Shown here: piece after piece, positions 8,158 to 48,515 of the stretch
How the letters are laid out: every line of letters begins with the position of its first letter
How positions within the stretch are numbered: position 1 is the stretch's first letter
DNA from: a virus
Length of the DNA: 64,000 bases
Direction: 5' to 3' (one strand)
UHGV virus genome: UHGV-0091736
Position numbers and translations under genes: made by a program
The notes under the pieces: model-generated
Seen by the model: the letters and a program-made list of their open reading frames with translations, nothing else
Databases searched by the model: none
Told to the model about the DNA's origin: nothing

Positions 8158-8479
8158 TTGGATTTTCTCCATCAAGTTCAACTGAGTTAGCAACGTTACG
8201 TGCAATATTATCCATTACCTGCTGGGTAATTACGATGCAGTTCTGTGGGTCTACTGACTTAGAACGCCCCATTTCAGGGTCATACACCTTAACACGCTTA
8301 GCAGTTGAACCTGTAACCTGAAGAACCTTCAACAGATATCCCTGATTACCAATAGACCAAGCAACAACATCACGATTCTTGATAAAGCGACCAAGCATAT
8401 CACGATGATAAAACTGTTGCATCACCTTGGATTTTGTAATCTCTTCAGTGGGCGGGGCCACTTTACTCAAATCTAACAT
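8150..8479 (-). CDS. hypothetical protein (109 aa)
   Basis: ORF track; ATG; AAATGTATA element upstream. Confidence 0.55.
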   Translation of the reverse strand: MLDLSKVAPPTEEITKSKVMQQFYHRDMLGRFIKNRDVVAWSIGNQGYLLKVLQVTGSTAKRVKVYDPEMGRSKSVDPQNCIVITQQVMDNIARNVANSVELDGENPNA

Positions 8480-27781: not shown

Positions 27782-27858
27782 TGGCGCACCGTGTAGGACT
27801 CCAACCTACAACCTATTTCTTAGAAGGAAATTGCTCTCTGCAATTGAGCTAACGGCGC
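27782..27858 (-). tRNA. tRNA-Arg (anticodon UCU), CCA encoded
   Basis: Hand-folded cloverleaf: GCGCCGT/ACGGTGC acceptor, GCTC/GAGC D stem, ATTTC-CTTCTAA-GAAAT anticodon arm, GTAGG-TTGGAGT-CCTAC T arm, G, CCA. 77 nt. Confidence 0.85.
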
Positions 27859-39544: not shown

Positions 39545-40018
39545 ATGTTTGGAGAAAACGGAGAACTCACGCCTGCACAGGTAGCTGAGATTACAGGAAG
39601 ATTACCCGGAGTAACGGAAGAACTTGAAGGCCGTGGTATGAACCCAAGCAATGGGAAGTTTCAAAAGGGGAATAAATTCGGACGACCCAAAGGTAGTAGA
39701 GGTAAACTGACACAATTAATGTTGGACCGTGTTGCTGCAAGTCATTTGTCTCCTGATGAAGTGTTAATTCAAATTTACGAAGATCCTAATATTCCACCTG
39801 ATCTTAGATTCAAGGCTGCATCAAAAGTTGCAGATCTGGTATATCCTAAGGCGGCCTCCGTTGAAGTTAAGATTGAGGAAGAGAATGTAATCAACGAAGA
39901 ATCATTGAATGCACAAATCAAGGACTTCTTGACTGGAGCACTTGGTATCGACGTTATGCCTCCAGAAGAAGACAACTCTGAGGACGCTGAAAAGGGGGAG
40001 GAAGCGGACGAGAGTTAA
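39545..40018 (+). CDS. putative small terminase subunit
   Basis: Located immediately upstream of terL. GNKFGRPKGSRGK basic motif, acidic tail. Confidence 0.45.
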   Translation: MFGENGELTPAQVAEITGRLPGVTEELEGRGMNPSNGKFQKGNKFGRPKGSRGKLTQLMLDRVAASHLSPDEVLIQIYEDPNIPPDLRFKAASKVADLVYPKAASVEVKIEEENVINEESLNAQIKDFLTGALGIDVMPPEEDNSEDAEKGEEADES

Positions 40019-42464: not shown

Positions 42465-44708
42465 ATGGCTAAGCAAAAATATAGTGAAGAGGTGTTGGAC
42501 GAGTTACGTGTTGACCTTCAACGTCGTTTTAATTACGCTCAAGGCTACGTGGACATGGCTGTTAAGGGCTATGCTCGTGAAGCTTGGGAATATTTCTATG
42601 GTAACTTACCTGCACCAGTAACTGCTGGCAGCTCTAGTTGGGTAGATCGTACTGTTTGGGAATCTGTTAACGGTACATTGCAAGATATTATTAACGTATT
42701 CTGTTCTGGTGATGAAGCAGTTACTTTCGTAGCTGACAACCAACAGGATTCTGATGCTGCTGATGTAGCAACTAAATTAGTCAACCAAATTCTTCTGCGT
42801 GACAATCCGGGATACAATATTATCTCTTCTGCTGCACAAGAATGTCTGGTTACTCGTAACTCTTTTATCAAATATTATTGGGATGAGCACACTTCTACTC
42901 AAACTGAAGAAGCTGAAGGTGTACCACCGGAAGCATTGGCTGCATATGTTCAGGGATTAGAAGCTGGTGGACTCAAGAATCTGGAAATCTTCACTGAAGA
43001 TAATGAAGACGGTACAGTAGATGTTAAAGTTACTTATGAACAAACTGTTAAACGTGTGAAAGTTGAATATGTTCCTTCAGAGCAAATCTTTGTTGATGAA
43101 CATGCTACCTCTTTTGCAGATGCACAATACTTCTGTCATCGTGTACGTCGTTCTAAAGAAGATCTGGTTGCTATGGGCTTCCCTAAAGATGAGATTGAAG
43201 CATTCAACGACTGGACAGACACGATGGACACCACTCAATCTACAGTTGCTTGGTCTCGTACTGACTGGCGTCAGGATATTGATGCTGATATTGGTACAGA
43301 TACCGAAGATATCGCTTCTATGGTTTGGGTTTATGAGCACTACATCCGTACTGGTGTTCTAGATAAGAATAAAGAGTCTAAACTCTATCAGGTTATTCAA
43401 GCTGGTGAGCATATCCTTCACACTGAAGAAGTAACTCACATTCCGTTTGTAACCTTCTGCCCGTATCCGATTCCGGGTTCCTTCTATGGTCAATCGGTCT
43501 ATGACATTACGAAAGATATTCAAGATTTACGTACCGCGTTAGTTCGTGGTTATATTGATAACGTCAACAATGCTAACTATGGTCGATACAAAGCTCTTGT
43601 TGGTGCATACGATCGTCGCTCTCTGCTTGATAACCGTCCCGGTGGAGTGGTTGAAATGGAACGTCAGGACGCTATTGACCTGTTCCCATACCATAACCTA
43701 CCTCAAGGTATTGACGGCCTCCTAGGCATGTCTGAGGAGCTTAAAGAGACACGTACAGGTGTAACCAAACTAGGCATGGGTATCAACCCTGATGTGTTTA
43801 AGAATGATAACGCTTATGCAACCGTAGGCTTGATGATGAATGCTGCACAGAACCGTCTCCGTATGGTATGTCGTAACATTGCTCACAATGGTATGGTTGA
43901 ATTGATGCGTGGTATTTACAGTCTTATCAGAGAAAACGGTGAAGTTCCTATTGAGGTACAAACACCTCGTGGTATGGTTCAGGTTAACCCTAAACAATTA
44001 CCAGCTCGTCATAATCTTCAAGTTGTTGTAGCTATCTCTCCTAATGAGAAAGCAGAACGTGCACAGAAACTGATTAGCTTGAAACAGCTGATTGCAGCAG
44101 ATGCACAGTTAGCACCTCTCTTTGGTTTGGAGCAAGATCGTTACATGACTGCACAGATCTTTGAGTTGATGGGTATTAAGGACACTCACAAATACCTTCT
44201 GCCTCTGGAACAGTATCAGCCTCCAGAACCTTCTCCGATGGAAATCCTCCAGCTCGAGATGACTAAAGCACAGGTTGAGAACGTACAGGCTTCTTCTCAG
44301 AAGATGATTGCTGATGCATTCGACCAACGTGAACGTACTACATTTGAACAGCAGAAAGCTGCGGATGAATTGAGTCTGCGTCAGGAAGAGTTGCAGTTCA
44401 AGCAAGAAAATGCAGCAGATGTTATGACTCTGGAAAACCGTAAAGAAGATAACAGCGCTACTCTGGAACAAGCTAAGCACAAGTTAGCTCTTATGCAACA
44501 GCAGGTCCGTCAATATGAATCTGTACTGAAAGAGTTGCAGATGGTTATGGAACATCAGGTTGACCAAGAGAAGCTTAATGAACAATCACGCATTCAAAAC
44601 AAGACTTTGGAACTCCAAAAGAAAGAAGCTAATGTAACTAAGAAAGAGCAACAAGCTTCTCTCAAAGATTCACGGATTCCAGGCAAACGTCTTGGAAGTA
44701 AAAAGTAA
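42465..44708 (+). CDS. portal protein (747 aa) with long C-terminal coiled coil
   Basis: Size and position after terL. Coiled-coil tail rich in Q/E/K. Confidence 0.7.
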   Translation: MAKQKYSEEVLDELRVDLQRRFNYAQGYVDMAVKGYAREAWEYFYGNLPAPVTAGSSSWVDRTVWESVNGTLQDIINVFCSGDEAVTFVADNQQDSDAADVATKLVNQILLRDNPGYNIISSAAQECLVTRNSFIKYYWDEHTSTQTEEAEGVPPEALAAYVQGLEAGGLKNLEIFTEDNEDGTVDVKVTYEQTVKRVKVEYVPSEQIFVDEHATSFADAQYFCHRVRRSKEDLVAMGFPKDEIEAFNDWTDTMDTTQSTVAWSRTDWRQDIDADIGTDTEDIASMVWVYEHYIRTGVLDKNKESKLYQVIQAGEHILHTEEVTHIPFVTFCPYPIPGSFYGQSVYDITKDIQDLRTALVRGYIDNVNNANYGRYKALVGAYDRRSLLDNRPGGVVEMERQDAIDLFPYHNLPQGIDGLLGMSEELKETRTGVTKLGMGINPDVFKNDNAYATVGLMMNAAQNRLRMVCRNIAHNGMVELMRGIYSLIRENGEVPIEVQTPRGMVQVNPKQLPARHNLQVVVAISPNEKAERAQKLISLKQLIAADAQLAPLFGLEQDRYMTAQIFELMGIKDTHKYLLPLEQYQPPEPSPMEILQLEMTKAQVENVQASSQKMIADAFDQRERTTFEQQKAADELSLRQEELQFKQENAADVMTLENRKEDNSATLEQAKHKLALMQQQVRQYESVLKELQMVMEHQVDQEKLNEQSRIQNKTLELQKKEANVTKKEQQASLKDSRIPGKRLGSKK

Positions 44709-44717
44709 GGACGTCGA

Positions 44718-44954
44718 ATGAACATTAGGCATCAATTCAATAAAGAGCACGCCGCCGCTTTGGCGGCTCTCAATCTTAACGGCAGTCTTGACGCAGCATT
44801 AGAGGCATTGAAAGAAAGACTCATGACAGAGATAGTTCAAACAGAACCTCATGAGAATAAGAAACGCGAAGATTGTTATCAAAAGTATAAAATGGTGGGT
44901 AGCTTAAAAGAGGTCATAAAAGCTGCTATCAATAGTGCAGGAGATGTTTCATAA
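44718..44954 (+). CDS. hypothetical head-associated protein (78 aa)
   Basis: ORF track; synteny. Confidence 0.5.
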   Translation: MNIRHQFNKEHAAALAALNLNGSLDAALEALKERLMTEIVQTEPHENKKREDCYQKYKMVGSLKEVIKAAINSAGDVS

Positions 44955-46039
44955 TGCCACAAGATAATTATATTGACCCGAACGATTTTAAATCTTTCCT
45001 CCAACTGGATGACCTGAAAGGTTCTTTCAAAGAAGAACTCGGTCGATTAGAATCTGAACAAGAACCAGAAGTGGACATTGACGATGAGTTCCCGGAAAAA
45101 GACGGTGACGATTTCGACTTTGATACCGACCTTCTCGGTGAAAGCGATGAGCTTAAGTTCGAAGATGAAGATGGTTGGGAAGATCGTGAAGAGGAAGGCG
45201 AAGTCGAAGAAGATGAGGAAGAATTTGATGAATCAGATGAAAACTCTGAAGCAGATGAGGACGACTCAAGCGATGCAGGATATGAAGATGATTCTGCTGA
45301 CGGTGAAGGTGAAGTCTTTGATGTAGACTACGAAACCGTTATCACCCTTCCTGATGGACGTGAGATGACTATTGAAGAACTTTCTAATGGCTATCTTACT
45401 GGTGCTGATATGACAGAACGAGAATCAACTCTTCAGCGTCATATGGAAGCATTTGAGGAACGTGTAGTAGGTTTGAAGGATGTATTAGAACTAGCGTCTT
45501 TAGAAGCAGACCGAGTAATTGAAGATTATAACGGTTTTGATTGGGACAAGCTTGCAGTAGAAGATCCTCAAGCATATGTTGAAAACAAACGTTTCCTAGA
45601 GAAGTACACAGCTCGCCGTCAACAGCTTGAACAGGCTCAGGTCCGTGTTAAGCAGGAAGCAGCAGCTAAAGAACAGGAAGCTTTCCAAGCCAAGAGCATT
45701 GAATGTGTTAATATTCTGAAACGTGAGATTCCAAATTGGGATGAAAACTTATATCAAAACTTAATGCAATACGCAATTGACTTAGGTGCTACTGAAGAAG
45801 AAGTATTGAAGGAAAACCGTCCGTCTATTTTCCTAGCTCTCCATAAAGCATACCAATTTGATAAAGGTAAGCAACAGGTGATGGCTAAGATTAAACGTCC
45901 CGGTGCTCCACGCAAGGTTGTGAAGTCTGATGCTGCAAAGTCTCGCACTTCCAATAAGCCCGACAACGCTAAGGTTGCCAAGGCATTCGCAGAGGGTCGC
46001 GTTAGTCACGAAGACGCATTCAAATTCCTCGTAGATTAA
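44954..46039 (+). CDS. putative scaffolding protein (acidic N-terminus, coiled coil)
   Basis: Sits between portal and capsid. D/E-rich region and helical C-terminal half. Confidence 0.6.
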   Translation: MPQDNYIDPNDFKSFLQLDDLKGSFKEELGRLESEQEPEVDIDDEFPEKDGDDFDFDTDLLGESDELKFEDEDGWEDREEEGEVEEDEEEFDESDENSEADEDDSSDAGYEDDSADGEGEVFDVDYETVITLPDGREMTIEELSNGYLTGADMTERESTLQRHMEAFEERVVGLKDVLELASLEADRVIEDYNGFDWDKLAVEDPQAYVENKRFLEKYTARRQQLEQAQVRVKQEAAAKEQEAFQAKSIECVNILKREIPNWDENLYQNLMQYAIDLGATEEEVLKENRPSIFLALHKAYQFDKGKQQVMAKIKRPGAPRKVVKSDAAKSRTSNKPDNAKVAKAFAEGRVSHEDAFKFLVD

Positions 46040-46079
46040 TCGACAAATTAATTATTAATAGTATAGGAGCTAACATAAC

Positions 46080-47138
46080 ATGGCTAATCCAACTTTATTT
46101 GTATCGTATGACCAGAATGGTAAAAAACTTTCTTTTGCTAACTGGATTTCTGTTCTGTCCCCTCAGGATACCCCGTTCGTATCCATGACCGGTAAAGAGT
46201 CTATCAACCAGACTATCTTTAGCTGGCAGACCGATGCACTGGCAAGCGTTGACGGTAATAACGCACACGTCGAAGGCTCTCGTGCTGAAGACGGCGAAAT
46301 GAAACCGACTGTTATCAAGTCTAACGTTACTCAGATTCTGCGTAAGGTTGTTCGTGTTTCTGATACTGCTAACACCACCGCTAACTACGGTCGTGGTCGT
46401 GAACTGATGTATCAGCTGGAGAAGAAAGGTAAAGAGATCAAGCGTGACCTCGAGAAAATCCTTCTGTCCGGTCAGGCTCGTACCGACGTTCTGGCTGACC
46501 AGTACCTGACTAACTCTGCAACTGATCCTGCTGTTGTTGGTCTGAATGACACCCATGCAGCTCGTAAGACTGGTGCATTCCAGTTCCTGTGTGCTCACGG
46601 TGGTCTGGCTGGTGGTGTTGTTGACAAGACCAAGAATGGTCCTGCTGACCCGGATACTGGTGCAGTAACTGTTAAAGTTGCACAGAATGCTTCTAACCTG
46701 ACCACTAACATTGGTTTCGACGAAGCTGATATCTTTGATATGACTCTGCAACTGTATACCGCTGGTTCTGAAGCAGATATCATCATGATTAACCCGGCTC
46801 ATGCTAAGATCTTCGCTGGTCTGCAAGAAAATACTCAGGGTTCACGTAAGCGTATCTTTGAGAACACCAAGCAGTTCATCTACGAAGTTAACAGCATCAC
46901 TGACCCGCTGGGTCAGAGCTACAAAATCATCGTTAACCGTTGGATGCCTACCGATGCAGTTTACTTCTTCCGTAGCGCTGACTGGACTCAGATGGTTCTC
47001 CGTGCTCCGAAACGTACTGAACTGGCTAAGGACGGTTCTTACGAGAAGTGGATGATTGAAATGGAAGTTGGTCTGCGTCACCGCAACCCATATGCTTCCG
47101 GCGTTCTGTTCACTGCTGCGGGAAAGGTGGCGGCGTAA
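46080..47138 (+). CDS. major capsid protein (352 aa, zero-frame product)
   Basis: Strong codon bias, GGAG RBS, and position. N-terminus MANPTLFVSYDQNGKK..SWQTD resembles capsid proteins of related podophages (memory). Confidence 0.75.
   Translation: MANPTLFVSYDQNGKKLSFANWISVLSPQDTPFVSMTGKESINQTIFSWQTDALASVDGNNAHVEGSRAEDGEMKPTVIKSNVTQILRKVVRVSDTANTTANYGRGRELMYQLEKKGKEIKRDLEKILLSGQARTDVLADQYLTNSATDPAVVGLNDTHAARKTGAFQFLCAHGGLAGGVVDKTKNGPADPDTGAVTVKVAQNASNLTTNIGFDEADIFDMTLQLYTAGSEADIIMINPAHAKIFAGLQENTQGSRKRIFENTKQFIYEVNSITDPLGQSYKIIVNRWMPTDAVYFFRSADWTQMVLRAPKRTELAKDGSYEKWMIEMEVGLRHRNPYASGVLFTAAGKVAA
47120..47126 (+). promoter_or_regulatory. -1 programmed frameshift slippery heptamer G GGA AAG
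   Basis: In-phase X XXY YYZ in the capsid frame, 12 nt before the capsid stop. The -1 frame is open into the Big_2 ORF. Confidence 0.65.
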
Positions 47139-47662
47139 CAGTAGACAGTGTGACTGTTAGCCCTGCGTCTTTAGCAAGTCTAGAGACAGGGGCTACTCGG
47201 CAGTTCACTGCAAGCGCGGAGAAAAGTGATGGTTCTACCGAAACAACTGGCTTTACTTGGTCAGTGACAGGAGGTGGTTCTATCACTCAGTCGGGTTTGT
47301 ATACTGCTCCGAGTGCGTCTCAATCCACTGATGTATCCATTACTGCAACTTTAGAAGGTGTTTCTGGTACAGCAACCATTTCTGAAATTGTTGCTCCTGC
47401 TCCTACTATTGTGAGTCGTGGGCCAATTACAGGTAAAGTAGGTGGTACTACCACTAACTTCAACACCATGTTTACTGTAACTAATTCTATTGCTGATGAT
47501 TATACACTTGTTGTAACTCCCGCAGAAGCTGGTACAATAAGCGCTAATAATTCGTTAAAATTAGATGCTGCTGCAAGTGGCGAAGTTACTGTTCAAGCTA
47601 GTTTGACAGCCACTCCGTCTATCAATGCAACATGCACTTTTACTGGTGTAACACCTGCTTAA
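47126..47662 (+). CDS. Ig-like (Big_2) domain extension, expressed as a capsid -1 frameshift fusion (about 527 aa total)
   Basis: -1 frame reads GKGGGVTVDSVTVSPASLASLETGATRQFTA... No SD precedes the GTG at 47150. Confidence 0.6.
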   Translation, partial: GGGVTVDSVTVSPASLASLETGATRQFTASAEKSDGSTETTGFTWSVTGGGSITQSGLYTAPSASQSTDVSITATLEGVSGTATISEIVAPAPTIVSRGPITGKVGGTTTNFNTMFTVTNSIADDYTLVVTPAEAGTISANNSLKLDAAASGEVTVQASLTATPSINATCTFTGVTPA

Positions 47663-47669
47663 AACTAGA

Positions 47670-47697
47670 CCCTGCCTTCGGGCGGGGTTTTTCGTTT
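47670..47697 (+). terminator. Rho-independent terminator (plus)
   Basis: CCCUGCC-UUCG-GGCGGGG then UUUUUCGUUUU. Confidence 0.7.
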
Positions 47698-47720
47698 TAA
47701 GACCTATACAAGCTAGTGTG

Positions 47721-47762: not shown

Positions 47763-48515
47763 ATGGCAATGCCAGACGTTCAAAACCCAATCAATACCTA
47801 CGGATGGCTTAAGAAGGCTGTGTCCCTCTGGGCTGACCGTGATGACTCTGAATTTATCAATCAAATTCCAAACTTTATTAATTTTGCAGAGAAAGAGATT
47901 TATCGTAACTTACGTATTCCTCCTCTGGAAAAAGAAGTCTATCTAGGGATTAAAGATGGTATAGCTTATATTCCACCAGATTATCTAGAGGCTCAATGGA
48001 TGATGAGAGCTGTGGATGGTTCAATATTTCAAGTGACTTCTCCAGAAGAGATAAGCTATCGAAGACAGCATGGGGCTATTAACTCTTCACATTGGAATAA
48101 CCAACCTGTTAATTTTGCACGGTTTGGAGCACGCTTCTTATTCTACCCTAGAATCAATGCAGATGTTCCACATTACCCTGATGATGGTAGTCCGATTGTT
48201 CCAGCAGAGAACTCCGTAATTTTAAGCTATTATGCAGATCCTCCGGAGTTTCATGAAGATGGTGATACAAGTGCGATTCTCACTATTGCACCAGAACTTC
48301 TTTTGTATTTTACTCTGAGGCATGCATGTTTATTTGTTCAAGATGATAATGGGGTTCAAAAGTGGTCTGCTTTAGGTAAGGCTATTCTTGATGAGCTAGT
48401 AGAACAAAGTAAGAAACAAGAATACTCTGGTTCTCCAATTGCTATACCTAATAACATGTCTAGGCTCCAGAGCAGCTTGCCAGATGTTTATGGAATACGT
48501 ACCTCACGAATATAA
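47763..48515 (+). CDS. putative head-tail adaptor/connector protein (250 aa)
   Basis: Position after the capsid module. Functional call is tentative. Confidence 0.4.
   Translation: MAMPDVQNPINTYGWLKKAVSLWADRDDSEFINQIPNFINFAEKEIYRNLRIPPLEKEVYLGIKDGIAYIPPDYLEAQWMMRAVDGSIFQVTSPEEISYRRQHGAINSSHWNNQPVNFARFGARFLFYPRINADVPHYPDDGSPIVPAENSVILSYYADPPEFHEDGDTSAILTIAPELLLYFTLRHACLFVQDDNGVQKWSALGKAILDELVEQSKKQEYSGSPIAIPNNMSRLQSSLPDVYGIRTSRI

Follow-up and report, generated by a model that had tools for sequence, protein, structure and literature searches.

The major capsid protein gene found in a 64,000-nucleotide stretch of the virus genome UHGV-0091736 (the window, whose positions are used throughout) ends close to a slippery heptamer, and is followed in the -1 reading frame by a long open extension that encodes immunoglobulin (Ig)-like domains. 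All features lie on the plus strand unless stated otherwise. The capsid gene occupies positions 46080..47138 in the zero frame, with its stop codon TAA at 47136-47138, encodes 352 amino acids (38.7 kDa), and is preceded by a Shine-Dalgarno element that can be read from the sequence, AGGAG at 46065..46069, 10 nucleotides 5' of the ATG. Its product is a member of the Pfam family SU10_MCP (PF17236; 257.8 bits, E-value 2e-76, for a cut-off of 24.1): residues 1-352 match the capsid protein of phage SU10 solved by electron cryo-microscopy (cryo-EM; 7Z45, E-value 2.2e-234), and the identity with the SU10 capsid is 98.9% by tblastn. The heptamer, G GGA AAG, is at positions 47120..47126, and the extension, at positions 47126..47662, has 178 codons followed by TAA (47660-47662); it is recognized by its open frame, its pattern of substitutions and its assignment to PHROG 13745. 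We are highly confident that a -1 programmed ribosomal frameshift at the heptamer yields a minor protein in which the capsid and the Ig-like extension are fused.

In the zero frame, the end of the capsid gene reads ACT GCT GCG GGA AAG GTG GCG GCG TAA. The first-pass annotation of this DNA claimed that the heptamer is in X XXY YYZ phase, and that the -1 frame runs without a stop into an Ig-like open reading frame (ORF): the sequence bears out both statements. The proposed tandem slip would take place on the codons of Gly348 and Lys349; nine nucleotides separate the end of the heptamer from the capsid stop codon, and GGGAAAG is the sole in-phase XXXYYYZ heptamer across the 352 codons of the gene. 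From position 47126, the -1 frame reads GGT GGC GGC GTA ACA GTA GAC AGT GTG, translated GGGVTVDSVTVSPASL. The predicted junction is GVLFTAAGK followed by GGGVTVDSVTVSPASL, which begins with GGGVTVDS, and the predicted fusion has 349 + 178 = 527 amino acids, with a computed mass of 55.9 kDa, close to the 55 kDa that had been announced for a minor product of about 527 residues next to the 352-residue protein.

The bare motif GGGAAAG occurs at chance level in the window, with 9 copies observed for 7.4 expected. The picture is different when the frame is taken into account: the window ORFs of at least 120 amino acids contain 47 in-phase heptamers, with -1 runs of 4 codons at the median; at 178 codons, the run of the capsid heptamer is by far the longest of the 47. 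This configuration is far from chance, and the case for a frameshift is built on phase, position and open frame; the motif count plays no part in it. The second-longest real case in the window is an in-phase A AAG GGG at positions 39991-39997, 25 nucleotides before the stop of an ORF of 157 amino acids (39545-40018), with a -1 run of 34 codons, 27 of them beyond the stop; there, the configuration is probably due to chance.

Judging by nucleotide matches, the window phage is a Kuravirus, that is, a phiEco32-like podophage of Escherichia coli (Gordonclarkvirinae). The 1.76 kb around the site match 126 phage records, and the identity at the locus is 98.7% with Escherichia phage vB_EcoP_DE5, the best match, 98.2% with ES17 (MN508615), 97.1% with phiEco32 and 96.2% with SU10, all of them Kuravirus podophages with prolate heads. 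In order to follow the site through its relatives, the locus was compared in 16 annotated phages and 19 IMG/VR contigs. The heptamer is invariant in 14 Gordonclarkvirinae loci besides the window, and in the genomes of Privateer and vB_CsaP_009. An in-phase GGGAAAG leading into a -1 frame that is open for 178 to 370 codons is found in ShigP1, phiEco32, MN05, O18-011 and 101114BS3, as well as in ManiMatter, KBNP1711 (Nieuwekanaalvirus), EK010 (Suseptimavirus) and the IMG/VR contigs L017-L020. Conservation of the heptamer and of the frame relationship, which had been put forward as a check on the frameshift, thus extends through the Gordonclarkvirinae, with the frame of SU10 as the sole exception, and on to Privateervirus: Privateer and vB_CsaP_009 keep both the heptamer and the open frame at only 57% capsid identity.

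Around the site, the window and phiEco32 are identical over 75 nucleotides. The frame relationship withstands indels: three extra nucleotides follow the heptamer in contig L018, and in ManiMatter, where the usual stop of the zero frame is lost, the capsid ORF runs until six codons past the lysine; the -1 frame is uninterrupted in both. The zero-frame tails past the lysine differ among relatives (VAA, AAA, AGA, VEA, AVAA, LDPQQ), while the -1 peptide G-G-x-V-T-V-D-S is conserved.

The extension belongs to PHROG 13745, 'Ig domain containing protein', with an E-value of 6e-75. Its AlphaFold model, based on 25 sequences, has a predicted local distance difference test (pLDDT) score of 96.5 and consists of two beta-sandwich domains. 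Domain 1 (residues ~6-85, positions 47141..47380) is a divergent Big_2 domain: it spans positions 2-75 of the 79 positions of the Pfam profile PF02368, despite scores of 18.8 bits for the domain alone and 16.2 bits for the whole extension, both under the gathering threshold of 22.8. Domain 2 (residues ~94-176, positions 47405..47653) is modelled with a pLDDT above 95, and has no Pfam match at threshold. The extension itself has no solved structure; the best Foldseek match of the model in the PDB is to Leptospira LigA and its tandem Ig-like domains (8GYR, E-value 2e-11), followed by a Big_2-CBM56 structure (7R3T) and, more weakly, by LigB, the phi29 prohead (6QVK), T5 pb6 and Hoc. Distant cellular homologues that carry PF02368 align from SVTVSPAS on. 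The extension is thus best modelled as two tandem Ig-like domains, with a bacterial Ig-like fold resembling that of solved Big_2 domains. The earlier description of an appended Big_2 Ig-like domain is right about the fold; the number of domains is two instead of one, and the Big_2 label stays below the Pfam threshold.

Comparison with relatives gives ratios of non-synonymous to synonymous substitution rates (dN/dS) of 0.22-0.58 for the extension, and of 0.08-0.15 for the capsid gene; the -1 frame is therefore coding, and under purifying selection. From the same alignments, the extension evolves and recombines much faster than the capsid gene. Its length is 178 amino acids in the window, 370 in EK010, and about 540 in YF01 (PMC9965538). 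In contig L018 (4547-5086, compared with window positions 47126-47662), dS is 1.19 in the extension and 0.165 in the capsid gene, for amino acid identities of 66% and 98%: the Ig module appears to have been exchanged by recombination, the slip site being at or close to the boundary. Codon usage changes as well. The frequency of optimal codons (Fop) is 0.79 in the capsid gene, the highest among neighbouring genes, and drops to 0.61 in the extension; leucine is encoded by CTG in 19 of 24 codons of the former, and in none of 8 codons of the latter. This weaker bias fits a low level of translation, with few ribosomes reading the extension.

The most serious competitor of the frameshift is also the prevailing annotation: GenBank and RefSeq records list the Ig ORF, with few exceptions, as a gene of its own. 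A mechanical reading of the -1 frame in the window starts it at GTG 47150, the ninth codon of the extension, and yields 170 amino acids (16.8 kDa); the product would be a free, Hoc-like decoration protein, bound non-covalently to the head, and GGGAAAG would be incidental. The extension does have a weak PHROG match to Hoc-like head decoration proteins (E-value 7e-4), phage O18-011 has an ATG at the codon of GTG 47150, and the authors of the SU10 cryo-EM study considered a distinct gp10, maybe lost during purification (PMC9509320). However, as the first-pass annotation had pointed out, this GTG has no Shine-Dalgarno sequence, none being found in the 20 nucleotides that precede it, whereas the capsid gene has AGGAG. 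Nor is the start conserved: KBNP1711, EK010 and L019 have GTA in its place, and L018 has ATA, and in these loci the first usable start comes 15-46 codons further, inside the domain; in Privateer, it comes 60 codons further. Overall, the earliest start codon of the -1 frame lies anywhere between codons 8 and 60 past the slip, and gene callers pick scattered starts that truncate the domain (MTVSP.., MASL.., MSDGS.., MYTAP..).

The limits of the domain lead to the same conclusion. The first beta-strand of domain 1 (residues 6-12 in the AlphaFold model) and the Big_2 match, from residue 6, both begin upstream of GTG 47150; it follows that only ribosomes coming from the capsid gene can produce a whole domain. 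The conserved GGxVTVDS is also encoded upstream of the candidate starts, and the coding region of the tryptic peptide GGGVTVDSVTVSPASLASLETGATR is at least partly upstream of GTG 47150. Finally, a separate gene would leave an invariant, in-phase heptamer without explanation. We regard a separate gene as very improbable, and consider that, on the sequence data, translation of the extension in all likelihood occurs only within the 527-residue fusion, of which it forms the C-terminal part.

A second alternative is that the heptamer and the Ig frame are juxtaposed by chance, or that the extension is an untranslated relic undergoing decay. The chance-level frequency of GGGAAAG in the window could be invoked here, together with the deposited SU10 sequence, according to which the loss of the extension is not lethal to the phage. 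Against it, mass spectrometry of relatives is reported to detect the product (PMC7881722, PMC4281155), the frame has remained open, and dN/dS below 1, in lineages separated by dS values of up to 1.2-1.6, the fold is predicted with confidence, and relatives with 57% capsid identity still have the heptamer. This alternative is even less credible than a separate gene. Least credible of all is another form of recoding, whether transcriptional slippage, a +1 or -2 shift, or stop-codon readthrough, which would give a fused product of similar size and has no specific support: the offset of the Ig frame is precisely -1 in all relatives, the heptamer has the canonical form for a tandem slip, and both slippage by the polymerase and readthrough are rejected on sequence grounds, the first because it needs homopolymer runs of roughly 8-9 nucleotides and those at the site have only 3, the second because the zero frame continues as TAA CAG TAG and meets a TAG two codons on.

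The frameshift at this capsid locus was already known: it has been published for phiEco32, SU10, Privateer and YF01. The SU10 genome paper points to GGGAAAG as 'a potential ribosomal slippage' by which, as in phiEco32, the head protein is joined to the Ig-like CDS10, and reports both the 38.5 and the 55.4 kDa forms by mass spectrometry (PMC4281155). In Privateer, the frameshifted minor capsid protein was observed within virions by mass spectrometry, and the same study states that the product is seen in phiEco32 and SU10 (PMC7881722); the GenBank record of Privateer annotates the fusion as a joined coding sequence. According to the paper on YF01, the slippage is shared by the entire Kuravirus-like group (PMC9965538). 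The presence of both protein forms in virions is thus known from the literature on phages that are nearly identical to the window phage; for phiEco32, SU10 and Privateer, the reports rest on mass spectrometry or SDS-PAGE. With these reports of the same GGGAAAG frameshift (PMC4281155, PMC7881722, PMC9965538), the interpretation given in the first-pass annotation is very well supported.

Two sets of observations, however, weigh against the proposed frameshift, or at least against an efficient one. The first comes from SU10, whose cryo-EM study found neither density for the extension nor a larger band (PMC9509320). The missing density can be explained: a 1-nucleotide indel in the deposited SU10 sequence, against all other Kuraviruses, closes the -1 frame 11 codons on, downstream of an intact heptamer, and flexible, sub-stoichiometric domains average out. 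The indel lies just 3' of the slip site (L002 1622-1680; KM044272 near 8,390-8,440), where SU10 has GACACTGTCTACTG and the other sequences have GACAGTGTGACTG; it has already been remarked (PMC9965538). It is at odds with the 55.4 kDa form detected by mass spectrometry in 2014, consistent with the cryo-EM of 2022, and either an error in sequencing or a mutation acquired in the laboratory may account for it.

The second set concerns RNA structure. A stimulatory hairpin or pseudoknot 5-9 nucleotides past the site, or a Shine-Dalgarno-like element before it, often accompanies tandem-slip sites without being obligatory. A search for a downstream hairpin or pseudoknot, suggested along with the original proposal, returned only weak and mutually exclusive hairpins, with z-scores from -1.3 to -2.4. 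The nearest, at positions 47136..47158, pairs UAACAGU with ACUGUUA in an A/U-rich stem of 7 base pairs after a 9-nucleotide spacer, and is a candidate, unproven stimulator: its fold is not significant (z-score of -1.3 for folds of 44 and 70 nucleotides), its stem columns are invariant save for the closing base, which is C in ManiMatter, the third codon positions of its loop vary, covariation is zero, and the insertion in L018 alters its spacing. The other candidate, equally unproven, is a long irregular hairpin at positions 47146..47210, incompatible with the first (minimum free energy of -36.8 kcal/mol, z-score of -2.4). It is retained in the RNAalifold consensus, where three of its pairs have double changes, some pairs are broken, and the covariation term is -0.19; because it starts 19 nucleotides past the slip site, it is too far for a classical stimulator. 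A stem-loop described in the SU10 paper (CTGCTGC...GCGGCGG) was discarded, since it encloses the slip site and would already be melted by a ribosome on the site. Upstream, a Shine-Dalgarno-like element was sought in the sequence and none was found. There is thus no convincing stimulator downstream of the site, and since significant structure is lacking and the covariation of the candidate helices is near zero, the efficiency of the frameshift is probably low in the window phage.

Assuming that the frameshift does operate, events would unfold as follows. Most ribosomes would stay in the zero frame, read three more codons (V A A) and stop, producing the 352-residue capsid protein. A minority would slip back one base, with the glycine and lysine tRNAs on GGA and AAG re-pairing on GGG and AAA, and would go on to read GGT GGC GGC GTA in the -1 frame, producing the 527-residue fusion: a capsid fold with two tandem C-terminal Ig-like domains. 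The fusion would enter the prolate head as a minor, co-assembled subunit and expose its Ig-like domains on the surface. By analogy with the G/GT site of phage lambda, where the heptamer is the same, the efficiency might be a few percent; for the 715 capsid subunits reported in SU10, fusions making up between a few percent and 10% would amount to about 25-70 per head. The Ig-like domains, presumably located on the surface of the head, may bind weakly to glycans or cell surfaces.

The organization of the locus is compatible with such joint expression. The order of features is portal (42465-44708), a small ORF, scaffold (44954-46039), capsid, Ig-like extension, terminator, and adaptor (47763-48515). 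The terminator is a strong intrinsic one, at positions 47667..47700, in which a T-rich tract comes after a stem of 10 base pairs, 6 of them G-C; its counterpart in the SU10 record carries a terminator annotation. Because it comes directly after the extension, the capsid gene and the extension are on one transcript. Elsewhere in the window, there is a single tRNA-Arg gene (anticodon TCT) on the minus strand, at positions 27782-27858, and an Rfam scan of the whole window returned no family at the gathering threshold.

More distant members of the capsid family carry Ig-like domains as well, by other arrangements. Escherichia phage PJNS034 (L008 3885-4289; 42% capsid identity) has C CCA AAA in the position of GGGAAAG, 10 nucleotides before the stop, and a -1 extension of 132 codons, I-set-like, annotated as a separate hypothetical protein; about 15 nucleotides downstream of CCCAAAA is a very stable hairpin (z-score of -3.1, none of 200 shuffles as stable).

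A group made up of Lahexavirus-like phages and three metagenomic contigs, namely Aeromonas phage LAh_6 (L007 3912-4187), locus L025 and the IMG/VR contigs L021-L023 (4412-4930), with 58-66% capsid identity, has no canonical XXXYYYZ site, and has at the homologous position G GUA AAG, one base away from GGGAAAG. From this motif on, the -1 frame leads without a stop into Ig domains that are complete: LAh_6 covers positions 2-88 of the 90 positions of the I-set profile, with VLKVK-ALTPPVVTTQPA as predicted junction, and L021 has two Big_2 domains (119 bits). In L021-L023, a 6-nucleotide spacer leads to the hairpin GCGCCC-CUAC-GGGCGU and then to a second long hairpin; the region was folded in two of them, with z-scores of -5.0 in L021 and -3.1 in L022. 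GenBank records the Ig region of these phages merely as a short, truncated 'putative tail protein'. From these alignments, G GUA AAG is probably an unannotated, non-canonical -1 frameshift site.

In a third arrangement, the 7-11-like Salmonella phage pSal-SNUABM-01 (L006 1982-4794) has tandem capsid genes, a short one of 312 amino acids and a long one of 597, in which three Big_2 stretches are fused in frame without a slippery site; the related contigs L028 and L034 share the long in-frame form, with 585 amino acids. Read from gene content, the duplicated capsid gene of the 7-11-like phages is an alternative to frameshifting through gene duplication.

It is tempting to combine these observations into a broader conjecture, which we offer as tentative and rather doubtful in its entirety. 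The Ig extension would be a swappable surface module, bounded at the slip site, that could aid adherence to mucins or glycans in gut Kuraviruses such as ES17; and the capsid family would have found at least four routes to a minor capsid protein tipped with Ig domains: GGGAAAG, CCCAAAA, G GUA AAG with a 6-nucleotide spacer and a GC hairpin in the Lahexavirus-like phages, and the duplicated in-frame capsid gene of the 7-11-like phages. As for ES17 itself, the searched passages of its study ascribe the binding of mucin and heparan sulfate to the tail fibre, a fibre without Ig-like fold, and capsid Ig domains appended by frameshifting are not discussed in those passages (PMC7885116).

The main value of the present analysis is in annotation. 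Almost all Kuravirus records, including those of RefSeq, give the Ig ORF arbitrary starts that truncate a domain, and the 527-residue trans-frame capsid protein merits a joined coding sequence, as was done for Privateer. The fusion would put tens of Ig-like domains on a prolate head, which is relevant to the adherence of phages to mucus or cell surfaces, in a genus that includes candidates for phage therapy (ES17, SU10-like phages), and the capsid C-terminus is potentially usable as a display site. In principle, however, none of these implications for adherence, therapy or display is new.

How does the window compare with known systems? The same gene, heptamer, phase and Ig extension are found in phiEco32 (gp11/gp12), SU10 (gp9/gp10) and YF01 (gp8), from which the window has no substantive difference: it is a variant at the level of isolate or species, with an intact -1 frame, unlike the deposited SU10 sequence. 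In Privateer, a Proteus phage of the genus Privateervirus, GGGAAAG likewise ends the homologous capsid gene (57% identity), but it abuts the stop directly (GGGAAAG TAA), whereas 9 nucleotides separate them in the window; the Privateer extension consists of an I-set and a Big_2 domain, and is apparently not equivalent, domain for domain, to that of the window.

Phages T7 (10A/10B) and T3 (gene 10) also use a -1 shift near the end of a podophage capsid gene to make a longer, minor capsid protein that co-assembles; they differ from the window in capsid family and in slippery sequence. The latter is G GUU UUC in T7 and C CCA AAG in T3, and the 10B extension of T7 is short, about 50 amino acids, instead of a two-domain Ig module. 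The rate of capsid slippage of this type is quoted as about 10% (PMC9965538). With the G/GT site of lambda, on the other hand, the heptamer G GGA AAG is identical and the context differs: that site is in a tail assembly chaperone gene whose product is not in the virion, while the window site is in a capsid gene. Lambda G/GT is not known to need strong downstream structure, and the lack of a convincing stimulator at the window site agrees with this. Its efficiency is quoted as about 3.5% (PMC9965538).

The addition of domains in this manner is a wider phenomenon. Fraser et al. (J Mol Biol 359:496) reportedly described, in 2006, phage Ig-like domains that are added by frameshifting. Two more recent papers present the Big_2 and I-set domains of phages as displayed on the virion surface, often through programmed frameshifts, with weak carbohydrate binding as a proposed role (PMC9965538, PMC7885116). 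Hoc, finally, is a separate protein that binds the centres of hexamers, whereas in the window phage some of the capsid subunits would carry the Ig-like domains through a covalent link.

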